39,827 nucleotides of DNA from IMG/VR virus record IMGVR_UViG_3300015262_000002, positions 1-39,827 of that record; one strand, 5' to 3'. The notes below the pieces were generated by a model. The model was not told the origin of the DNA and did not search any database. It saw only the letters and a program-made list of their open reading frames with translations. The DNA is from a virus (lineage: Duplodnaviria; Heunggongvirae; Uroviricota; Caudoviricetes). Of this stretch, positions 7,538-31,888 are shown piece by piece (position 1 is the stretch's first letter; every line of letters starts with the position of its first letter). Made by a program: the position numbers and the translations under genes.

Positions 7538-7921
7538 ATGCAACAAGTTAAAGGAATGCCGCTAGTAGATTTTGAATGCTTAGTTGCTCGCAAGTATCGC
7601 GACAAAGTAACAAGTTCAAAGACTCGCAACATTGAATTTAAACTGTCATTGAATGAGTTCCGACAGTTGCTTATGCGTAAGAATTGCGCGTATACCGGTA
7701 TTCCACTGACGTTGCACACACAAGGCAACCAATCTAATACTGACTTGTCAATTGAACGTGTTGACAACAGTCGTGGGTATGTCAAGGGAAATGTTATTTC
7801 CGTTTGTCATGCTGCAAACAATATCAAAAGTGTGTTTGAAGATCCTAGTACTTTCTTGACTGTTAAAGATGCGGTTAAGATGTTCGCCAGTATTGAAAAG
7901 ATGACAACACAGCTAAAATAA
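7538..7921 (+). CDS. HNH-like fold protein resembling T4 Srd-type proteins
   Basis: CAYTG ... SIERVDNSRGYVKGNV ... C-H-x-A-N-x-x-K. Confidence 0.55.
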   Translation: MQQVKGMPLVDFECLVARKYRDKVTSSKTRNIEFKLSLNEFRQLLMRKNCAYTGIPLTLHTQGNQSNTDLSIERVDNSRGYVKGNVISVCHAANNIKSVFEDPSTFLTVKDAVKMFASIEKMTTQLK

Positions 7922-7924
7922 TCG

Positions 7925-7952
7925 TTGACACACTGATTCAATGCTGTAGAAT
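7925..7952 (+). promoter_or_regulatory. Early promoter, 16-bp spacer
   Basis: TTGACA-N16-TAGAAT. Confidence 0.8.
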
Positions 7953-7999
7953 CAACCAAATAAACCAAACCACTAACCATTTGTTAAGGATTAACCGTA

Positions 8000-8128
8000 A
8001 TGACTTTGTTCTTCAAGAGCCGCACACTTGCCCGTCAATTCACTAGCATCAACGGCAAGGTGGTTGACCATGGTACGGACGCGCCTGTAGGTCGCCGCTG
8101 GGGCTTCCTGATCAATAAGGTAGTGTGA
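8000..8128 (+). CDS. Small protein, 42 aa (MTLFFKSRTLARQF..., not in track)
   Basis: TAAGGA SD behind promoter. Confidence 0.7.
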   Translation: MTLFFKSRTLARQFTSINGKVVDHGTDAPVGRRWGFLINKVV

Positions 8129-8131
8129 CCC

Positions 8132-8500
8132 ATGACTATCAAAAGTATCGTAGTATCAACAAAACCTTTCAAGTTTAACGTTGGTGACCAACTGTTCACT
8201 TGTGAGTTCTTCGGCGGTAAAACGCTAACTGTTCTTTCACCGGTTGAAATTAACGGCGGGATTGAAAAGGTCAAAGTCTTGTGTACTGGCTCTGACAAGT
8301 GTTACTCGTTTTGTGTTGGTCGTGAAGACTACATTTTTCCGGGTGATTTAGGTGTGCCGGGTTTTGCATATGATGACCGTAAATGCAGCCTGTTCCGTAG
8401 CAAGAAAGCAGCAGACGCACATGCAGGTGTTTATTCCAAATGGCTTGATCGAAACCCTGTTGATCTGGGTGAGTCATATTTTGGTCACTGGTACGACTAA
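8132..8500 (+). CDS. Hypothetical protein
   Basis: ORF ending before terminator. Confidence 0.7.
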   Translation: MTIKSIVVSTKPFKFNVGDQLFTCEFFGGKTLTVLSPVEINGGIEKVKVLCTGSDKCYSFCVGREDYIFPGDLGVPGFAYDDRKCSLFRSKKAADAHAGVYSKWLDRNPVDLGESYFGHWYD

Positions 8501-8519
8501 CAGAACAAAGTATGTAATG

Positions 8520-8542
8520 AGCCCCGCTTTGTCGGGGTTTTT
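8520..8542 (+). terminator. Rho-independent terminator
   Basis: AGCCCCG-CTTTGT-CGGGGTT then TTT. Confidence 0.85.
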
Positions 8543-8580
8543 CATTGCCTGAAATAAATGCAAATCTTTGAAAATAGTTG

Positions 8581-8608
8581 TTTACTCGTTTTCTAAACGT
8601 TGTAGAAT
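8581..8608 (+). promoter_or_regulatory. Early promoter, 16-bp spacer
   Basis: TTTACT-N16-TAGAAT. Confidence 0.7.
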
Positions 8609-8659
8609 AGGCGTCAAGAAAGGGGAAAAGCCTCTTTCACCACTAAAGAGACTAAGAAC

Positions 8660-8983
8660 ATGACTACAATTGGCCAAGTAGCTGACAAGATTGTTAAAGA
8701 TCGTCTTGACCTTGATTATGTCAAGGACTGTGGTAAGAATACTGTCGGTGAAGTGTACCAAGCTGAATATGGTTATAATGGTTTGACTGATACATCCTGC
8801 AAAGACTATTTGCAAGGACTTCCATCGTTGTGTACAGTTCCGTTCTATAACAATGAAATCCTAGAAATCCTTAAAGAAAACGGAATCACAGTCAAATCTG
8901 AGAAAGCACAACAGACATTGCTTGACAAATACTGGCAAGCGTGTGGTGCTGCGCTTCACAAATACATTCGGCGTGAAAAATAA
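8660..8983 (+). CDS. Hypothetical early protein (YLQGLPS motif)
   Basis: ORF between two promoters. Confidence 0.75.
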   Translation: MTTIGQVADKIVKDRLDLDYVKDCGKNTVGEVYQAEYGYNGLTDTSCKDYLQGLPSLCTVPFYNNEILEILKENGITVKSEKAQQTLLDKYWQACGAALHKYIRREK

Positions 8984-8986
8984 AGC

Positions 8987-9014
8987 TTGACCATTTCTCT
9001 AAACCTGCTAGAAT
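8987..9014 (+). promoter_or_regulatory. Early promoter, 16-bp spacer
   Basis: TTGACC-N16-TAGAAT. Confidence 0.8.
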
Positions 9015-9063
9015 TACCACACAAGGGAGGCAAATAGCCTCCCAAATCAAAGGAAGTAAAGCA

Positions 9064-9270
9064 ATGTTGATCTTCAATTATGAAACCAAGAAGGTAATGA
9101 AAGAAGCTATTGGTCAACCGTTGAAATACACTGAAACTTCTATGTTCGGTCCTGAATACAAAATGGACGGTGTGATGGTTGGTTGCAATCGTCCACACTT
9201 GACAGGCTACAAACGTGAGTTTTTCGCTGAGATAACTGTAAAAGATGGTAAGATCGTAAAAGTCAAGTAA
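9064..9270 (+). CDS. Small conserved-looking phage protein (ETSMFGPEY / NRP / REFFA motifs)
   Basis: AAGGA SD; motif recalled from many phages, function unknown. Confidence 0.75.
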   Translation: MLIFNYETKKVMKEAIGQPLKYTETSMFGPEYKMDGVMVGCNRPHLTGYKREFFAEITVKDGKIVKVK

Positions 9271-13151: not shown

Positions 13152-13466
13152 ATGAAAACTTCTGAAATTCTGGTAAATGCTCGTGCTTTGATTGCAAACC
13201 CTTTGCACTGGATGCAAGGCGACTATATAAAAGAGGCTGAGAATGAGCCTACCTGTTATTGTTCATTGGGTGCCATTGGTAAAGTGGTTGGTGTTGACTG
13301 GTATGGTGAGGTTAACAATATGATGGCTGCTAAGCTTCTAGCACGTGTTGTAGAAGGTGAAATACCAGCAGACCACACCTTTGCACCATACAACGACAGT
13401 CACACTCATACCGAAGTATTGGTAGCCTTTGATAAGGCAATTGCACTGGCTTTAACCACTGAATAA
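13152..13466 (+). CDS. DUF6197-like phage protein
   Basis: W-x-QG ... CYCSLGAI ... YND ... EV-x-x-x-FD-x-AI pattern. Confidence 0.6.
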   Translation: MKTSEILVNARALIANPLHWMQGDYIKEAENEPTCYCSLGAIGKVVGVDWYGEVNNMMAAKLLARVVEGEIPADHTFAPYNDSHTHTEVLVAFDKAIALALTTE

Positions 13467-13470
13467 CCAT

Positions 13471-13486
13471 TGTTCCACGTGAAACA
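13471..13486. promoter_or_regulatory. parS: parS-consensus palindrome, copy 1
   Basis: TGTTCCACGTGAAACA fits TGTTNCACGTGNAACA. Confidence 0.75.
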
Positions 13487-13490
13487 CTAG

Positions 13491-13516
13491 AGCCCCGCTT
13501 TGTCGGGGCTTTCCTT
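13491..13516 (+). terminator. Rho-independent terminator
   Basis: AGCCCCG-CTTTGT-CGGGGCT then TTCCTT. Confidence 0.8.
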
Positions 13517-13552
13517 CGTCTACATTTTCTTTCAAACGTCTGAAAATAAAGC

Positions 13553-13580
13553 TTGCAACCTTTTCTAAAGCGTGTAGAAT
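13553..13580 (+). promoter_or_regulatory. Early promoter, 16-bp spacer
   Basis: TTGCAA-N16-TAGAAT. Confidence 0.8.
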
Positions 13581-13629
13581 TAACCATACCAGAGAGGAAA
13601 AACCCTCTCGAACAACAAAGGTGACGAAC

Positions 13630-13995
13630 ATGAACAAAGTCTGGAAGTTCACAGCAGAACAAAAGCGTCAAATCCGTGAAGCAGCACAGAAAGCCAGCGG
13701 TTTTAAACGTGTGAAGCTTGAAGCTGGACAACGTGTTTCAACTGTGAATACAGGCGCTGACTTCAAGGTTTCCACCAACAGTATATTGGTGGATGATTCT
13801 CCAGACTTTTGCAGTAAGTCTGACTTGTGGGACCAGCAAGATTGGGCTTTCATTGTCAAACATGGTGTAGAGTTGACCGATGACGGTCGGGCATTTGTTG
13901 ACTTTTACGTATACAGTGTTGGTGATTATGGTCAACTTGAAACGAATATCGGTGTGTATTACGCTGACGGTAAAATCCAACGAATTAAAGTTTGA
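13630..13995 (+). CDS. Hypothetical protein
   Basis: AAGGTG SD before ATG 13630. Confidence 0.75.
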
Positions 13996-14003
13996 GGTGT
14001 AAC

Positions 14004-14357
14004 ATGACCGTATATTACGAGTGGGATGTAGAAGAAGTTGCAAATGCTGACATGACTTCTTGTGGTCAAGACTTTGCAAAAGATGATGTCATGGAACACT
14101 GGCACCAGACATCATATAAAGACTGCTTAGAATTCATTGCCAAAAATCCACCAGAACAGAACGTCCGTTATGATACCGTTCTAGTTCGTGATGACGACGA
14201 CAGACGAGCATGGGCGTATATGAGTGACGGTGAGCTTGACGACTGGTGTTGTGATGCTGACGGGATTGAATACCGAAAAGTTCCTAAACGGTATCATGAT
14301 GAGGTGAAAAGAATTCAAAATAAACCGTTGACGCCTATTCTAAAACCTGTAGACTAG
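14004..14357 (+). CDS. Hypothetical acidic protein
   Basis: GAGGTG SD; 3' end overlaps next promoter. Confidence 0.75.
   Translation: MTVYYEWDVEEVANADMTSCGQDFAKDDVMEHWHQTSYKDCLEFIAKNPPEQNVRYDTVLVRDDDDRRAWAYMSDGELDDWCCDADGIEYRKVPKRYHDEVKRIQNKPLTPILKPVD
14328..14355 (+). promoter_or_regulatory. Early promoter, 16-bp spacer
   Basis: TTGACG-N16-TAGACT. Confidence 0.75.
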
Positions 14358-14384
14358 GCTCATCCAAACAACTGAGGTTGCAAC

Positions 14385-14456
14385 ATGACTTACGTTCTCT
14401 GCTCTCTGATGACAATTCTCGTATGCATAGCAGTCTGGTCTGTTGTAACCATCTAA
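14385..14456 (+). CDS. 23-aa membrane peptide (not in track)
   Basis: GAGGT SD directly behind promoter. Confidence 0.55.
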   Translation: MTYVLCSLMTILVCIAVWSVVTI

Positions 14457-14463
14457 TCGGAAT

Positions 14464-14790
14464 ATGAACATGTTGTTAGTCAAGATTGAAAAGTACCGCA
14501 CACACTGGTCACTGCGAATGCTTGCAGGTAAAGATAAAGGGTTACTTGTGTCAACCTGTTTTGATTCCGAAGAAGAAACCAGTACATATGCCGCTTCTCA
14601 AGTGTATGAGCTTGTAAGGAGTACAGCACTCTATAAGCGAATTGAAATCGTCAAAGGTGTGTGGAACAGTATGTTTTATGCCTTCGACCTTGACGGTAAT
14701 CAGGTACTGACTGATTACCGTTTCAGGACTGAGAAGGCATTGAAGGACATTATTGATTGGCACATTGACTGTCTAGAAAGAGGTGTGTAA
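14464..14790 (+). CDS. Hypothetical protein
   Basis: Packed ORF. Confidence 0.7.
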
Positions 14791-15158
14791 TGTCATCCAA
14801 AACAATATTTACTTTGTCAATGGTTATTTGTATGAATATATGTGCGGCACCTTATTACGGACCGGTCAACATTAACGGTATGACCGTACCCGGTAACATT
14901 GATTTAAATGCACGTCCAACAGTTCACAACCAAGATGGATCAATTAGCACAGTTCGAAGTATATCTGTGAACTTTGGACATGGTGAAACACTCATTCCAA
15001 CGGTTGCCGATGACGGCTCACATGTCCTATCTGATCAAGAAGCCATTGCTCAATATCGTCACACTGGTCAACATCTTGGAACATTTGACAGCATAGAGTC
15101 AGCTGATAAATATGCTCAGTCATTGCACGAACAACAGGCCATACAATACCTAAAATAA
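14790..15158 (+). CDS. Signal-peptide protein carrying a [21 protein letters not shown] domain
   Basis: GAGGTG SD; hydrophobic N-terminus. Confidence 0.75.
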
Positions 15159-15174
15159 AGATTTGACCATACAG

Positions 15175-15196
15175 AAAGCCCTTGATTGGGGCTTTT
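15175..15196 (+). terminator. Rho-independent terminator
   Basis: AAAGCCC...GGGCTTT then T. Confidence 0.75.
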
Positions 15197-15215
15197 GCCT
15201 ATGTGTTAATATTCC

Positions 15216-15243
15216 TTGCATATCTGTCATATACTGATAGAAT
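15216..15243 (+). promoter_or_regulatory. Promoter, 16-bp spacer, no credible ORF downstream
   Basis: TTGCAT-N16-TAGAAT with TGn. Confidence 0.7.
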
Positions 15244-15301
15244 ATTGTCATGGTGTGGAATTTAGCACGAGACAAACAGAGAGAGTGGGCAACGTTCCTA
15301 G

Positions 15302-15354
15302 TTGGCATGATAATAGCATACAGTATAGAGAACAGAGTTGGCACGCTTCTTGGT
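15302..15354 (+). promoter_or_regulatory. Two tandem sigma54-like -24/-12 motifs
   Basis: TTGGCATGATAATAGCA (GG-N10-GC) and TTGGCACGCTTCTTGGT. Confidence 0.45.
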
Positions 15355-15472
15355 ACGACGTTTTAATCCAAAAGACATGGCAGTGTGAAGGGTAGGTTAT
15401 AACGTCGCTCAAAACGCATTACAGAGCGTTGTAGAGCCTATGAATTCTTTTCTAAAAGATTGAAAATAATAC

Positions 15473-15500
15473 TTGCATGGTTTTCTAAACACTGTAGAAT
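15473..15500 (+). promoter_or_regulatory. Early promoter, 16-bp spacer
   Basis: TTGCAT-N16-TAGAAT. Confidence 0.8.
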
Positions 15501-15550
15501 TGAACACATAGAGAGGCAAAACAGCCACTCAAACAGCTCAAGGTGACAAC

Positions 15551-15814
15551 ATGAACATGATCAAAACCGTAGCAAACACTCACGAACTGCAAAACGGTGA
15601 TGTGATCTTTAATTGTGGTGTTTACTTCATTCTGTCAGACCGCAAAGAGTGGCCAATGACTGGTGATGATAAGGTTGAAAATGGTTGTGTGGTCACCTTG
15701 AAAGGTAATCCAGTTGGTGAGGTTGAACACCACAATTTTCCAGTTAGTTGGCTCAAAGACTACAGTATCCAAGGCAACAAACGTGCAACATGGTGCAAAA
15801 TCACCGCTGAATAA
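15551..15814 (+). CDS. Hypothetical protein
   Basis: AAGGTG SD. Confidence 0.75.
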   Translation: MNMIKTVANTHELQNGDVIFNCGVYFILSDRKEWPMTGDDKVENGCVVTLKGNPVGEVEHHNFPVSWLKDYSIQGNKRATWCKITAE

Positions 15815-15819
15815 AGTTG

Positions 15820-15848
15820 TTGCACTGTGGGTGTGGAGTCGATACAAT
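15820..15848 (+). promoter_or_regulatory. sigma70 promoter
   Basis: TTGCAC-N17-TACAAT. Confidence 0.7.
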
Positions 15849-15881
15849 GGCTTCACAACCACACAAAACCGAGTAAATATC

Positions 15882-15989
15882 ATGGGAAGTTACAAGGAAG
15901 CTCTGGTAGACTTAGCTCTTTTGATTGTCACTCTAGTCGTCGGCGGTTTGATTGTTCTCATGCTTATAGATGTTGCTCAAAGTCTATAA
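15882..15989 (+). CDS. 35-aa membrane peptide
   Basis: Start trimmed; single hydrophobic helix. Confidence 0.6.
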   Translation: MGSYKEALVDLALLIVTLVVGGLIVLMLIDVAQSL

Positions 15990-15997
15990 ATAAAAGC

Positions 15998-16033
15998 TTG
16001 TACATAGAGCATTCTCTAAGGTAGAATGCTCTA
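15998..16033 (+). promoter_or_regulatory. Promoter with 11-bp inverted repeat over -10
   Basis: TTGTAC-N18-TAGAAT; TAGAGCATTCT/AGAATGCTCTA. Confidence 0.65.
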
Positions 16034-16058
16034 ACACCAACCAATGAGGTACAGCGAC

Positions 16059-16268
16059 ATGACTAAGACCAAATCCTACTACAGCCTCCTGATTCTTCAA
16101 GATGGCAAGTGGTGCATCCATTTTGGTGATTATGACCGTCAAGTGGTAGAGGATGAAAAGCAAGATTTTCAAGAAGGTTATGGTGCAGCCTGTAAGATGA
16201 AAATCATTAGCACTGGCGATAGTCAGGCCGCGATTGACGCTAAAGTTTTCGAATTAAACAGTAAATAA
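16059..16268 (+). CDS. Hypothetical protein (W-x-IHFGDYDR motif)
   Basis: GAGGT SD before ATG 16059. Confidence 0.75.
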   Translation: MTKTKSYYSLLILQDGKWCIHFGDYDRQVVEDEKQDFQEGYGAACKMKIISTGDSQAAIDAKVFELNSK

Positions 16269-16271
16269 AGT

Positions 16272-16300
16272 TTGTAACCTTTCTCTAAAAGGTATAGAAT
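16272..16300 (+). promoter_or_regulatory. Early promoter
   Basis: TTGTAA-N17-TAGAAT. Confidence 0.7.
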
Positions 16301-16350
16301 ACATTTAACGAAACGGGGAATGTTCCCCGGCTCTCTTCTGAGGTGACACC

Positions 16351-16539
16351 ATGAACACTTCCCATCAAGAGTTTGCAACCTTCAAAGCTACCACCAGCGC
16401 TTTGCTCAATAACATGGTGCCAGCTCCAACCATCCGCGAAGCTTCTGCTATCGTTGCTCAGGAAGCCAAGAAGTGCGGCTACAATCCAGCGGCTGTTTCG
16501 TTTCGTCTTTCAACTACTGGTGTTTTCACCGTCGTCTGA
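16351..16539 (+). CDS. Hypothetical protein
   Basis: GAGGTG SD. Confidence 0.7.
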   Translation: MNTSHQEFATFKATTSALLNNMVPAPTIREASAIVAQEAKKCGYNPAAVSFRLSTTGVFTVV

Positions 16540-16564
16540 TAATTCTCTAAAAGGAATCACTGTA

Positions 16565-16804
16565 ATGAAAACCATCTTGACTCTTTCAAATATCAATGTA
16601 AACAATTTCCGTACCATGCATGACATCGTTGGTACTGCTGGTTATGCTGGGAGCCTAAAGCTGGTTAATGAAGAAACATACACGGTTGATCTTGGCGATG
16701 TTGAATCCCGCCTTCGTGCCATGATAACCGAGCAAGAAGTAAAGATTATGATCGGTGAGCTAATCATGCTCACTTCCATCAAAGTTGAATCCAGAACAAT
16801 CTAA
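16565..16804 (+). CDS. Hypothetical protein
   Basis: AAGGA SD; start trimmed. Confidence 0.7.
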   Translation: MKTILTLSNINVNNFRTMHDIVGTAGYAGSLKLVNEETYTVDLGDVESRLRAMITEQEVKIMIGELIMLTSIKVESRTI

Positions 16805-16810
16805 ACCAAT

Positions 16811-16826
16811 TGTTCCACGTGAAACA
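16811..16826. promoter_or_regulatory. parS: parS-consensus palindrome, copy 2
   Basis: TGTTCCACGTGAAACA, identical to 13471-13486. Confidence 0.75.
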
Positions 16827-16828
16827 TA

Positions 16829-16850
16829 AAAGCCCCGAAAGGGGCTTTCT
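16829..16850 (+). terminator. Rho-independent terminator
   Basis: AAAGCCCC-GAAA-GGGGCTTT then CT. Confidence 0.8.
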
Positions 16851-16959: not shown

Positions 16960-16989
16960 TTGACATAAACAGCATTTTCTTATTATAAT
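16960..16989 (+). promoter_or_regulatory. Consensus sigma70 promoter facing hairpin array
   Basis: TTGACA-N18-TATAAT. Confidence 0.7.
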
Positions 16990-16999
16990 GCCCTATGTC

Positions 17000-17736
17000 C
17001 ACCCGTAGTAACGGGTGAATAGGTATTAGAGAGACAGGAAAGAGTGGGGATAAACCCCACAAGAACAAAGAGTATGTATTAAAGAATACTATTATAACGT
17101 ATAACGTTATAGAATTACCTATTGTTATGTATACATAACAGGCGTACATATCAGATATAGAAACAGGGTAGTAACCCCTGTTCTCTCCCCTTGTATACGG
17201 TAGTATACCCTCTGTAACCTCCTACAGTACCACTCACTGCATAGCAGTGCAGTACCCCTACCATGTGCATAGCACATCATGTACCGCTTCTTACAAAGCC
17301 TTATAGACCATGGCTTACAAGCCATAAGCATATAACAACATGTCGTAATAACGACATAATAGTACCTATTCTGATATATAAGACTATTCGGGGATAAGCG
17401 TACATTGGGACAATGGGCTAAGCATCCCACACTCACTATCATCCCATTATATGGGATAGAGTATAAAATACCCTTGATTTATCAAGGTAAATAATAATCA
17501 ATATCATTTACTAATACGTGCATTCTGCACAAATAAATGGATAAAAGGTGTACATTCTGCCCGCATGGGCGTATAGTGAAACATTGTGGTAAGGCTGTGC
17601 AATGCAGCCATATAGAGACAACCACTCATACCCAACCCATCGATAGACAATACCTTCACGGTGCATACCAAGGGAGGGAATACAGCTGTGCGTGTAATAG
17701 GTATTATGTAAAATGCGATTGAATGCTAATCATTCA
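17000..17736. other. Gene-free array of about 18-20 short stem-loops
   Basis: Successive 4-8 bp inverted repeats with 3-6 nt loops; arms mutually unrelated. Confidence 0.8.
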
Positions 17737-17761
17737 CATATGGTGACCAACCGAATCACTT

Positions 17762-17778
17762 AGCAAGGTTTATGCCAA
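17762..17778 (-). promoter_or_regulatory. sigma54-consensus site facing hairpin array
   Basis: Minus strand TTGGCATAAACCTTGCT (GG-N10-GC). Confidence 0.55.
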
Positions 17779-17986: not shown

Positions 17987-18532
17987 TTAAAGAAGGTGTT
18001 TCCAAGTCTTACCTTCTGTGATCATTCTTGCTGTACCCTCGGATATACCAAACTCTTTAGCAAGTTTTGTCCGTTGACCGTAAATTCCTTTTACTTCTTC
18101 CCAGCGTTTACGCAGTTCAATAACTAGATTGTCAGTCATGACAGCAAGATGATGATCTGTACCTTTTGCTACACTATCAACCACTTTCTCAAACTTAACG
18201 CTTCTTTGGTAGTGTTCCTTGTTATCATCAGGTAAGACCCATTCAAGATTAACCATTGTATTATTTTCGATATTTAAATCTTTGTGGTTGACTTCCAAAT
18301 CATCCATTGCTGGGTTTGGTTGGAATGTAATCATCACCAGACGATGAACCAACATTGACTTTCGTTTACCATCTCCGTAATATAGCTGGACAGTAGTATA
18401 CCCGACTGTGTTCGGACTACCTTTTAGAACCTTCTCAACCTTCCGGTATGGTTTTACAAGACTCTTAACCCTACCCAAATTACTCACTTGATAACAACCT
18501 TCAAACCCTGCGATATCTTTCCATTCTTCCAC
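17987..18532 (-). CDS. NUMOD4-HNH homing-type endonuclease
   Basis: EEWKDI...YQVSNLGRVKS; VHRLV ... VNHKD ... NN ... NLEW. Confidence 0.9.
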   Translation of the reverse strand: MEEWKDIAGFEGCYQVSNLGRVKSLVKPYRKVEKVLKGSPNTVGYTTVQLYYGDGKRKSMLVHRLVMITFQPNPAMDDLEVNHKDLNIENNTMVNLEWVLPDDNKEHYQRSVKFEKVVDSVAKGTDHHLAVMTDNLVIELRKRWEEVKGIYGQRTKLAKEFGISEGTARMITEGKTWKHLL

Positions 18533-19954: not shown

Positions 19955-20221
19955 TTAATCAAAGAAGTGAGGACAGTCTGTGTCAACCAGAGTTGGACCG
20001 TCTACAGGAATACCATATGTATCAAGTTCAATATTGGCAGCTTTAGTTGCCTCTTCGATTGTGCGGTAGCGGAAAATCGATGATGAGCCATCACCACCGT
20101 ATGTAAACCCAGTGATAGGAAACCAGTCTTCACCTTCTGGACACCAGATTTCTACTACTTGGTTTTCACCACATTGTACAACCATGTCTTCAAGATTATC
20201 AATCAGGTCACGAATATTCAT
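19955..20221 (-). CDS. Hypothetical protein
   Basis: ATGA-coupled to phaZ. Confidence 0.65.
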   Translation of the reverse strand: MNIRDLIDNLEDMVVQCGENQVVEIWCPEGEDWFPITGFTYGGDGSSSIFRYRTIEEATKAANIELDTYGIPVDGPTLVDTDCPHFFD

Positions 20222-21024
20222 ACAGCCTCCAAGAAAGAGTGGATAATGGGTGTACAGCGTTCGATGTCGGTCAGTAGAAACAGATGACCGTCATTAAATA
20301 CATGTTGCACACTGTTGGGAATCAAGTTGGACAACACATGCATGTTAACCAGTGGAATGATTGGATCGTCATTACCACACAGTACCAATGTCGGTTGTCT
20401 AAGTGTGTGCAACCAAGTTAAACTGCTCCAACCGAACAACGCACCCATTTGATACTTGTACCCTTGTTCAAATGTGGGTGTCTTATCTGCAATCATCTTA
20501 CGTGCGTGAGACAGTCCTAACTTCTTGTCATGTCGGAAGCTACCACCATAAATATCTGGCGTAATACGTGCTGCAAACTCCAAATCAGTGTAGCGTTTAG
20601 GACTAGACATCAGACCAAGCACTTTGAAACTAGGAGGAACAGAGAGTACACCATGTGATGTGGCAGCAAGAATCAACTTACGACAACGTGTCGGGAACGA
20701 GTAAGCAAATTGCTGAGCAAGGAATCCACCCCAACTTAAACCGAGTGCATCCACATATTGAACACCAAGTACGTCCAGCATCTTACTTACAGTCTGTGCA
20801 AGACCTTGCATTGTGTACGCACCTGTAGTTGGTAAACTACTTCCACCAATTCCCGGTACATCAAATGCAATCACTGACAACTCTGGTGGTAGACTGTCGA
20901 TGAATGGAAGTACTAGTTCCAAACTTGCACCAATCCCATTAAAGAATAGCACCGGTACAGACGAACCTTCTCGAATTGCTACCCGAATAACCTGACCATC
21001 TATATTTATTGTTCTAATGTTCAT
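20218..21024 (-). CDS. phaZ: Intracellular mcl-PHA depolymerase (alpha/beta hydrolase)
   Basis: FNGIGASLEL, FDVPGIGGS, GLSWGG lipase box, AQQFA, GNDDPIIPLVNM, DGHLFLL as in Pseudomonas PhaZ. Confidence 0.88.
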   Translation of the reverse strand: MNIRTINIDGQVIRVAIREGSSVPVLFFNGIGASLELVLPFIDSLPPELSVIAFDVPGIGGSSLPTTGAYTMQGLAQTVSKMLDVLGVQYVDALGLSWGGFLAQQFAYSFPTRCRKLILAATSHGVLSVPPSFKVLGLMSSPKRYTDLEFAARITPDIYGGSFRHDKKLGLSHARKMIADKTPTFEQGYKYQMGALFGWSSLTWLHTLRQPTLVLCGNDDPIIPLVNMHVLSNLIPNSVQHVFNDGHLFLLTDIERCTPIIHSFLEAV

Positions 21025-22910: not shown

Positions 22911-23110
22911 TAGTCAACAATCTCAATGTCAATATAACATTCAAGAATTGAAAGCATGTGACTTTCACTCTCACACTTGCTCAAGTCGATACCATGATGT
23001 TTACCAATGTTGAGCATATGCTGACCAATCCAAGTCTGAGTGCCCATGAATACATCATCCTGATACAGACTAAAGACCGTACAGGCGTCATCCAATTTAA
23101 TCTTGTACAT
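22910..23110 (-). CDS. Hypothetical protein
   Basis: Packed ORF; start uncertain. Confidence 0.6.
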   Translation of the reverse strand: MYKIKLDDACTVFSLYQDDVFMGTQTWIGQHMLNIGKHHGIDLSKCESESHMLSILECYIDIEIVD

Positions 23111-23285
23111 AGTATTCCTCTTCAATTTGTGTTCCCCAGATGGTCATTGCCTTATCCAGAGTGTAATAGTAAATATTGGCGTGTCGTTGAAATGTTAGAT
23201 CCTTTCGAATCTCTTCATTCATTGGTTGGTCACGCCAGAACTTTGGTGGATCTGGATTGCACTCAGGACAATTGTTCACTATCAA
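23097..23285 (-). CDS. Hypothetical protein
   Basis: Coupled ORF. Confidence 0.5.
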   Translation of the reverse strand: MIVNNCPECNPDPPKFWRDQPMNEEIRKDLTFQRHANIYYYTLDKAMTIWGTQIEEEYYVQD

Positions 23286-23539
23286 CGTTTACTCTTTCCG
23301 CTTGTCTTTACCATCGTGAACACGAATCCGTAGATTGCCCAACCAATGAATGCAATGACACATAGGAAGAAAGTTACAATCATTAAGTCAGTGAAGTTCT
23401 TTAACATGAAGAACAAGAACCACATTGTAGCGATAATGCCGACAATCAAACCGATTGTTTTCAGATGCAGTTTCGTATTATCACCAAACCCATTGTACTT
23501 GTCAACAATTTTGTTGAACAATGCCTTTATTTTACCCAT
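23282..23539 (-). CDS. Two-TM membrane protein
   Basis: Two hydrophobic segments; GAGGAG SD. Confidence 0.7.
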   Translation of the reverse strand: MGKIKALFNKIVDKYNGFGDNTKLHLKTIGLIVGIIATMWFLFFMLKNFTDLMIVTFFLCVIAFIGWAIYGFVFTMVKTSGKSKR

Positions 23540-24051
23540 GGTTTACTCCTCAATAGTGATTGTAGTTCTTCAAGTGTGTATTCATCTAAATCCAATTCAG
23601 ACTGAAAACCTTGACCAGCAATTTTCATCATTCCCTTACCAGCTTTATCGTTGTCACCAATACCAATCAGATTGTATGGTAGCGTGTGTAACCAACTCTT
23701 CATTGGTTTAGGATTAGCTGTCAACAACGCTAAAGCATTATGTCCAAGCATATGTAAAGCAGACGCTTTAAATATTCCTTCAACAAGATATAGATCCTCT
23801 TTTGTTCTGTCAAGCACTTCAAGTCCCCAACATGCGTTAACACCTCGTTGACTGTATGTGAAATAACGTGCTTCATTTGGTAAGTTTAGTCTTTTGAACT
23901 CAACTTCAGGTCTGTACTGTTGAAATCCAGCAAATTGACCAGCAAGGTTGGTAAGATACACGGTGAGGACGTTGTTGTCAACGTCCAATACCTGATTCAC
24001 ATACCTAGTTGGGTCATAATGTCGTGTCAGCAGGTGTTTGATTAAATTCAA
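23527..24051 (-). CDS. Stand-alone TOPRIM-domain (primase-like) protein
   Basis: LYLVEGIF and GDNDKAG motifs. Confidence 0.7.
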   Translation of the reverse strand: MNLIKHLLTRHYDPTRYVNQVLDVDNNVLTVYLTNLAGQFAGFQQYRPEVEFKRLNLPNEARYFTYSQRGVNACWGLEVLDRTKEDLYLVEGIFKASALHMLGHNALALLTANPKPMKSWLHTLPYNLIGIGDNDKAGKGMMKIAGQGFQSELDLDEYTLEELQSLLRSKPWVK

Positions 24052-24251
24052 TCGTAAAGCTCCCGTTCATTGATATACATACTACGGTCCTCATAACTAC
24101 CGGGTACAACATATCGGAAACGAATCCAGTTTTCATACTGACTTTCCATGATAAACCGTAAGGCTCCTTTTCGAGTTAAATGGTGTGAGCATTCCCAGCT
24201 GTCATACCCACACGGATCAACCTCATATACGATGTAAATCTTACGACTCAT
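24048..24251 (-). CDS. Hypothetical protein
   Basis: Start trimmed to ATGA overlap. Confidence 0.65.
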   Translation of the reverse strand: MSRKIYIVYEVDPCGYDSWECSHHLTRKGALRFIMESQYENWIRFRYVVPGSYEDRSMYINERELYD

Positions 24252-24439
24252 TCCATCTGACTCCCATCCAGATTTCGAATTTGTGTCATCACACCGTCGT
24301 ATGTATGTGTATACCGACGCTGTACTTTCTCTAACCAAACTCGCGTTTCCTTATCTGGTCCAGTGTTCACCCAAATTGGATACCAAGCATACCAGTCGTG
24401 CCACTCAAACTTGTTCTTCTGAATTATCTTCTTTCTCAT
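24248..24439 (-). CDS. Hypothetical protein (WH-x-W-x-AWYP motif)
   Basis: Coupled ORF. Confidence 0.7.
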   Translation of the reverse strand: MRKKIIQKNKFEWHDWYAWYPIWVNTGPDKETRVWLEKVQRRYTHTYDGVMTQIRNLDGSQME

Positions 24440-24819
24440 CGTCCGTTCCTCACTCCAAAATGTTTCAACAGAATGTCATTCATCTCAGCAAACAACTTCG
24501 GACTTGTTTCACGCATCTTAGCCATACCAGTTCCAATCCCATTATGTGGGAACACAATCGTATGTCGCTTTGCTAAAACGAATAGTTGTCTCAAAGCCTT
24601 TTTCACATGTTCAAACTCACAAGGACTATCTGTGAAGAATGAACCAGCTTTCATTGATGGGTAACGTTTGGTTGGTATTCCAAATGCATTAGGTTCGTTA
24701 CGGATACACGCTTGCCCAGCTGTACCATACCCGGCTAAATTATCGCCAAATATAAATACTGAGCTGGGGAATTCGCGACACTTACGAACCGTTAGTTCAT
24801 TAGTGTATTCAATTAACAT
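24436..24819 (-). CDS. Conserved-looking phage protein (FIFGDN...GQA.IR.EPNA.GIPTK)
   Basis: GGAGG SD; function unknown. Confidence 0.7.
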   Translation of the reverse strand: MLIEYTNELTVRKCREFPSSVFIFGDNLAGYGTAGQACIRNEPNAFGIPTKRYPSMKAGSFFTDSPCEFEHVKKALRQLFVLAKRHTIVFPHNGIGTGMAKMRETSPKLFAEMNDILLKHFGVRNGR

Positions 24820-31692: not shown

Positions 31693-31888
31693 GAGAAACC
31701 TCCATCTTATTTACTTCAATGAACTCAGGGTGATCATCTAACGTGAAGTTGGTCCACGTGTAACGCCAGTAACCATCATGTAGTTCGTAATCTTCATAGT
31801 GTACACCACCGATATGACTGCGTGCAACCGGTTGTATTCCAACTGTGGCGTCTAGCTTAGACTGCCAACTTACGATAGCACCTGACAT
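31685..31888 (-). CDS. Hypothetical protein
   Basis: Coupled ORF. Confidence 0.65.
   Translation of the reverse strand: MSGAIVSWQSKLDATVGIQPVARSHIGGVHYEDYELHDGYWRYTWTNFTLDDHPEFIEVNKMEVSLD

Follow-up and report, generated by a model that had tools for sequence, protein, structure and literature searches.

Two identical copies of a 16-mer, TGTTCCACGTGAAACA, that matches parS, the chromosomal centromere bound by ParB, occur in the genome of a virulent-looking tailed phage of ~104 kb. The stretch of DNA analysed (the window, 39,827 nucleotides) comprises bases 1–39827 of the 103,827-bp virus record IMGVR_UViG_3300015262_000002. Such sites are present far beyond chance, form a regional cluster conserved across the clade and match the centromere of the probable host genus, Pseudomonas. 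The feature is real and conserved, almost certainly functional, and most likely a borrowed host centromere. ParB nucleates at parS as a cytidine triphosphate (CTP)-dependent clamp, slides over adjacent DNA and interacts with ParA. On balance, we favour the view that the phage 16-mers are selected, cis-acting parS sites of host type and, since no phage-encoded ParB or ParA was found, that they most likely load the host's chromosomal ParB.

Two exact parS sites in a shared context

Both copies were recovered as exact plus-strand matches, at 13471–13486 (site 1) and 16811–16826 (site 2), in agreement with the original prediction made for this DNA, and both conform to the 16-bp inverted repeat tGTTNCACGTGNAACa that defines chromosomal-type parS. 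Searching the whole 103,827-bp record with the consensus TGTTNCACGTGNAACA gave no match besides these two, against an order-2 Markov expectation per genome of 1.4e-3 for exact matches and 0.054 for matches with up to one mismatch. The backward-pattern control returned 0 matches across the whole genome, and a near-match at 31750 carries three mismatches, which is at chance level. Each site combines one half-site of the Pseudomonas type (GTTCCAC) with one GTTTCAC half-site, both of which are bound by Pseudomonas ParB. Isolated half-sites were neither enriched nor avoided in four complete genomes but occurred at expectation, so enrichment is limited to full palindromes.

The common context attributed to the two copies was also seen. 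At site 1, the TAA stop codon of an open reading frame (ORF; 13152–13466) is followed by CCAT, parS, two bases and a hairpin (13489–13512), while at site 2 the order is TAA (ORF 16373–16804), ACCAAT, parS, two bases and a hairpin (16829–16848), the hairpin stretches having folding energies of -17.4 and -14.3 kcal/mol, respectively. Because short flanks are shared by both copies (AACCA..T upstream and AGCCCCG..GGGGCTTTC downstream), they may be paralogues of one parS–terminator cassette rather than independent events. The 16-mer alone has no RNA structure (minimum free energy of 0), which rules out an RNA-structure reading, and it therefore reads as a protein site in duplex DNA.

A host-type centromere in a phage that lacks partition genes

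The sites had been assigned to the chromosomal, Pseudomonas type of parS, and this proved correct: they match the TGTTCCACGTGGAACA family, the sequence of P. aeruginosa parS2/3 and P. putida parS (PMC4368675, PMC7022226), and in our census the consensus was present in 98/101 Pseudomonas species genomes. Most Pseudomonas chromosomes carry a single consensus copy per 3–9 Mb, nearly always TGTTCCACGTGGAACA and, in complete contigs, often ~3–4 kb from the start. With about one consensus site per 6 Mb in these chromosomes, site density in the phage is roughly 100 times higher. P. aeruginosa ParB also occupies GTTCCAC and GTTTCAC half-sites, and parS1/4 of this species depart from the perfect parS2/3 by a change at position 16 (PMC4368675, PMC7022226). 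The phage sites resemble P. aeruginosa parS1–4 and P. putida parS in belonging to the same family, in which a change at position 16 and either C or T at position 5 are tolerated, and they share with parS1–4 the clustering of several sites within a few kb, such sites being the high-affinity class. Similarly, the location of the phage cluster near a strand-switch region recalls the ori-proximal parS clusters of chromosomes. Unlike chromosomal parS, however, the phage sites are not near oriC, no cognate ParB is encoded in cis, and few Pseudomonas chromosomes have the C/A hybrid form found in this phage (among the matches listed, only G021 and G072).

The same sequence thus serves as centromere in the genus to which the host probably belongs. 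Pseudomonas is the likely host because the nearest isolates by protein similarity, Pseudomonas phages vB_PpS_SYP (hereafter SYP), phiPMW (Plaisancevirus) and Ep020, include phages of P. plecoglossicida (SYP) and P. putida (phiPMW), and because a PhaZ-like alpha/beta hydrolase gene (20218–21024, minus strand) shares 55–60% identity with chromosomal or plasmid proteins of P. fluorescens, P. lini and P. serbica, which supports both a host origin of the gene and a Pseudomonas host. Otagovirus and Pakpunavirus are more distant by protein similarity. A megablast search of 12–18 kb against GenBank phages gave no match and blastn only short patches, and the phage was not found when bacterial assemblies were searched with a primase fragment for host or carrier-state evidence.

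The window was said to contain neither parA nor parB, and this holds for the whole genome, in which profile searches at E ≤ 1 gave no match to ParB_N, HTH_ParB or ParA-type ATPases (AAA_31, CbiA) and no parA–parB cassette, as would mark a plasmid-prophage, beside the sites. A tyrosine integrase was likewise not found in the whole genome; serine recombinases were not searched. Positive-control genomes scored in every ParA, ParB and integrase search. Within this scope, the phage has the gene content expected where parS is borrowed, with no ParA, ParB or lysogeny integrase of its own.

Conservation and selection in related phages

Relatives were searched as whole records, with up to one mismatch allowed and positions 5 and 12 left as N. 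Sites were present in 10/11 related genomes, with 1–5 each (Table 1), and 28 of the 29 sites were intergenic, bearing out the idea that intergenic parS might be conserved among relatives, while backward-pattern controls gave 0 throughout. Gene-order comparison places the sites at a syntenic position in every carrier, namely the last 2–8 kb of a block of small genes and the non-coding switch region that precedes the minus-strand replication block. Approximately 13 of the 29 share the layout of this phage, in which parS follows a stop codon and is itself followed by a hairpin or promoter, five are flanked by a stop codon or hairpin on one side and the next ribosome-binding site on the other, and ~10 are located in the hairpin array of the switch region.

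In an alignment of the site 1 cassette from seven phages (A1), 13/16 parS positions are invariant and parS is the best-conserved block of the intergenic cassette, the promoter being moderately conserved. The upstream genes are unrelated; for example, the gene at 13152–13466 is not conserved among the relatives that keep site 1. DNA homology with sister genomes G001, G002, G003 and G006 begins precisely at the first parS base (blastn), and site 2 is common to G002, with which homology starts at 16808. Decay of the palindrome with retention of the terminator had been named as an outcome that would speak against parS; the opposite was seen, as the palindrome is kept and the hairpin stems drift by compensatory changes.

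Mismatches are also placed in a distinctive way. All 12 in the 29 sites are confined to positions 1/16 and the central CpG, sparing positions 2–4 and 6–7. Even though the searches accepted any base at positions 5 and 12, position 5 is restricted to C (40 half-sites) or T (18) and position 12 to G or A. As far as the sequences go, variation in the phage sites mirrors that of functional P. aeruginosa sites, with only those positions varying at which parS tolerates change. The invariance is partly an ascertainment effect of the ≤1 mismatch cut-off, but the placement of the mismatches is not. Presence in 10/11 relatives, conservation above the rest of the cassette and mismatches only at tolerated positions are together what conservation under selection would produce.

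Further evidence comes from phiPMW, in which CACGTG occurs 0 times against ~21 expected in 103 kb. All three of its sites have the sequence TGTTCCACATGGAACA or its complement, with CACATG cores and both arms kept. As the arms were retained while CACGTG was purged, selection acts on the arms and not on the hexamer, whose absence looks like restriction avoidance. CACGTG is depleted elsewhere too (one copy versus ~13 expected in G007, and fewer than expected in EM and SPA05), suggesting avoidance of a PmlI/Eco72I-type restriction system in some hosts.

Precedents in other phages

The original prediction knew of no such description for phages of this kind, which overlooks the virulent Bacillus phages phi29 and Nf, reported to carry host-type parS bound by Spo0J/ParB (Meijer et al. 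2005, as related in PMC2731898). According to the account in PMC2731898, phi29 has five parS sites, its genome is reported to reach the prespore with the help of Spo0J, an effect described for phi29 only, and Spo0A boxes suppress the lytic cycle. As that account presents them, phi29 and Nf share with the present phage a lytic classification, the lack of their own partition genes and several parS copies of host consensus. The 16-mer TGTTCCACGTGAAACA itself serves as the standard B. subtilis parS in vitro. In contrast to the phi29 group, the phage described here is a ~104-kb tailed phage, is unrelated, and has parS roles that are predicted from sequence; its sites form one internal cluster beside early-operon terminators and a hairpin array. 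A phi29-like IMG/VR contig of 11.8 kb (L105), encoding a protein-primed phi29-type polymerase, a gp16 ATPase and a phi29 capsid protein, has paired copies of this 16-mer at each end, in inverted orientation. Four contigs of ~11 kb from sample 3300045988 (L053, L074, L105 and L119) have 16-mer pairs 25–42 bp apart near their ends, and the exact 16-mer occurs in at least 120 IMG/VR contigs.

Other systems offer partial parallels. The parABS plasmid-prophages P1, N15 and those of mycobacteriophages also bear centromere sites, which they use for extrachromosomal inheritance, but they are temperate and encode their own ParA and ParB with a private parS (PMC7157519), whereas searches of the present genome found no parA, parB or tyrosine integrase. 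Spo0A boxes in phi29 and Nf and CtrA boxes in alphaproteobacterial phages (‘lytic deferment’) similarly let proteins that report the cell cycle or state of the host tune infection (PMC9437464); these are transcription-factor boxes at promoters, whereas the present sites are centromeric and mostly at operon ends. No account of host-type parS in a Pseudomonas phage came up in full-text literature searches. The phiPMW genome paper treats promoters and terminators but is silent on these sites, and phages are absent from a 2020 review on chromosomal ParB (PMC7022226). What is new is therefore the Gram-negative, non-sporulating setting, the principle being already known from phi29.

Proposed recruitment of host ParB and competing explanations

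If the sites act as host-type parS, host ParB would load at them and build a partition complex on phage DNA, with its centre where the sigma70-driven small-gene block ends and in the strand-switch and hairpin-array region next to it. The phage genome would thereby be coupled to the host ParABS machinery. By analogy with phi29, the phage could gain a means to position or partition its DNA, most plausibly while slow growth or starvation of the cell holds back lytic growth, with local ParB-mediated silencing of the early region as a possible second effect; excess ParB silences parS-bearing plasmids (PMC4368675). We infer both ParB binding in vivo and the resulting benefit, be it positioning, partition, persistence or silencing, from the comparisons above. 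A more speculative extension, put forward tentatively, is that in this clade, whose phages are regarded as strictly lytic, host ParB at the parS cluster acts as both switch and tether in a spore-independent, ParABS-dependent carrier state. ParB clamps would then silence the early region and the hairpin-array locus in slow-growing or starved Pseudomonas, and ParA would partition the quiescent phage genome to daughter cells.

Several observations weigh against recruitment of host ParB. Pseudomonas forms no spores, so the benefit described for phi29, spore entrapment in combination with Spo0A boxes, is not directly transferable. The host of this uncultured phage is itself predicted. Strong early transcription runs through the sites, which stand between stop codon and terminator, and RNA polymerase would repeatedly displace ParB there. 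G007, Kremar, EM and SPA05 carry no sites, indicating that the lytic cycle can do without them, although G007 has no DNA similarity in this region and its zero count cannot be read as decay of homologous sites. Of 17 asymmetric sites, 15 have the same orientation with respect to transcription, a bias that a symmetric ParB dimer does not explain and that may reflect shared descent or use of the GAAACA half as a weak U tract on the reverse strand. Finally, the CACATG cores of phiPMW should weaken ParB binding, because an intact core matters for binding in P. aeruginosa (PMC4368675).

Alternatively, multiplied parS sites could draw ParB (and, by way of it, ParA, SMC or MksBEF) off the host origin, disturbing host segregation, division or replication control, or could mark phage DNA as ‘self’ to SMC-type defences such as Wadjet. 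This titration or re-wiring shares its binding premise with recruitment of host ParB for the phage's own benefit, and at ~100 times the host's site density a replicating phage pool would outnumber the 1–4 strong sites of the host. We nevertheless consider it unlikely, since titration depends on copy number and not on location, yet each relative with sites has them within a single 2–8 kb region. The sites are also few (1–5) and are missing from several relatives. Moreover, Pseudomonas ParB is non-essential and its loss is mild, producing a few percent of anucleate cells (PMC4368675, PMC7022226), so that the gain within a short lytic cycle is unclear.

It is also conceivable that the palindrome is an operator for a phage protein, such as an early or middle regulator, a replication initiator or a termination factor, and that its likeness to parS is convergence or mimicry. 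Palindromes that recur between genes, next to terminators and promoters, are characteristic of regulator sites, the orientation bias fits a role linked to transcription, the single core change common to all three phiPMW sites could arise by co-evolution with a binder, and most of the small early proteins belong to no known family. Nevertheless, the genome encodes no ParB-like or HTH_ParB protein, and no gene is distributed as the phage-encoded binder raised as a counter-explanation should be. When presence and absence of this phage's ORFs in SYP, phiPMW and Ep020 were compared with the four site-less genomes, a single ORF fitted a binder profile, a 62-aa acidic ORF beside the primase (23097–23285, minus strand) with no family match. 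Total avoidance of CACGTG accounts for the phiPMW core change, and identity to the host centromere at 14/14 specified positions across diverged phages would be hard to reach by convergence, all of which makes an operator quite improbable.

One other candidate was a 484-aa DndB-family protein (ParB/Srx superfamily), encoded in SYP (7671–9125, minus strand), Ep020 (68186–69625, plus strand) and Kremar (91284–92729). A parS site lies just after the stop codon of this gene in SYP and just before its ribosome-binding site in Ep020. It was rejected as the common binder, as the gene is absent from this phage and phiPMW and present in the site-less Kremar.

Least probable of all is a role without a protein partner, as a mobile or recombinogenic cassette marking module boundaries or an aid to bidirectional termination: the flanks common to both copies, the start of homology precisely at the palindrome and a reverse-strand scan that takes TGTTTC as the T run of the same hairpin would fit, but some sites have no hairpin and stand instead ahead of ribosome-binding sites or promoters or within the array of the switch region. 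Moreover, conservation is stronger in the palindrome than in the hairpin, the palindrome forms no RNA structure, and an exact match to the host centromere would be left without explanation by mobility and termination alike, as would the preserved arms in phiPMW.

Genomic setting of the sites

The phage genome has a GC content of 41.8%. From 1 to 16.8 kb, it carries small plus-strand genes behind sigma70-like promoters, followed from ~16.9 kb by minus-strand genes that include primase, ligase, nicotinamide adenine dinucleotide (NAD)-salvage and RNA-repair functions. The original prediction placed the sites on the first-injected DNA, which is not supported, as the terminal direct repeat is only 123 bp, possibly an assembly overlap, and the location of the sites, at the far end of the small-gene block, is not a known terminus. 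GC skew gave no origin call, its flip at 16–17 kb following the change in gene strand. The features surrounding the sites are listed in Table 1.

Table 1 Features around the two parS sites (positions in the window) and parS sites found in related phages.
Feature	Position	Strand	Remarks
Gene upstream of site 1, 104 aa, DUF6197 / phrog_762, no assigned function	13152..13466	+	Stop 4 nt 5' of parS
parS site 1, TGTTCCACGTGAAACA	13471..13486	.	Kept in G001, G002, G003, G006; variants in G004, G005
Intrinsic-terminator-like hairpin, 9-bp GC-rich stem, short U run	13489..13512	+	Directly 3' of site 1
Sigma70-like early promoter, repeated TTGnnn-16-TAGAAT family	13553..13580	+	Third element of conserved parS–terminator–promoter cassette
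Gene downstream of site 1, 124 aa, phrog_19710, no assigned function	13621..13995	+	SYP and phiPMW homologues mark syntenic position
Final gene of plus-strand small-gene block, 143 aa, phrog_1585, no assigned function	16373..16804	+	Stop 6 nt 5' of site 2
parS site 2, identical 16-mer	16811..16826	.	Junction of plus- and minus-strand gene blocks
Terminator-like hairpin, 8-bp stem, GAAA loop	16829..16848	+	Directly 3' of site 2
Perfect sigma70 promoter, TTGACA-18-TATAAT	16960..16989	+	Opens hairpin array to 17778
SYP			5 unique sites, one repeated in 351-bp terminal repeat
phiPMW (NC_041880.1)			3 sites
Ep020			5 sites
IMG/VR sisters G001, G002, G003, G004, G005, G006			1, 3, 3, 3, 2, 2 sites
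psageK4, PPSC2			1 site each
G007, Kremar, EM, SPA05			0 sites

Beside site 2, the promoter and the ~700 nucleotides that follow it (16960–17778, plus strand) form a conserved, apparently non-coding region with many short hairpins, which is not a parS. Hairpins of this array show compensatory changes between relatives. No Rfam family matched within 12–19 kb, and the region is a candidate structured RNA or origin region. In G003, G004 and G006, a parS site lies inside the aligned array region, and in G005 and SYP the context is similar but unaligned; at the aligned place, this phage has a palindrome, ATCCCATTATATGGGAT (17441–17457), that is also present in G002.

The promoter segment downstream of site 1 (13543–13620; TTGnnn-16-TAGAAT) is repeated at several places per related genome and may provide a homology patch for the exchange of early-gene modules. 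In the minus-strand block, a 174-aa ORF (23527–24051) matches only the middle part of a DNA primase profile (phrog_849, positions 148–337 of 435), and the primase may be split over several minus-strand ORFs (23527–24051, 23097–23285 and 24048–24819). An HNH endonuclease gene is located near these ORFs (17987–18532, minus strand).

Implications

The availability of cultured relatives, phiPMW on P. putida and vB_PpS_SYP on P. plecoglossicida, makes the proposed recruitment of host ParB directly testable. If it is correct, borrowing of the host centromere would be a recurrent strategy of lytic phages that extends beyond spore-entrapped phi29 to Gram-negative, non-sporulating hosts, and the phage sites would be natural substrates for ParB-CTP loading on a foreign, heavily transcribed replicon. 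It would also provide a molecular handle on pseudolysogeny and carrier states, with relevance to phage ecology and to the use of the ‘strictly lytic’ label in therapy and biocontrol.

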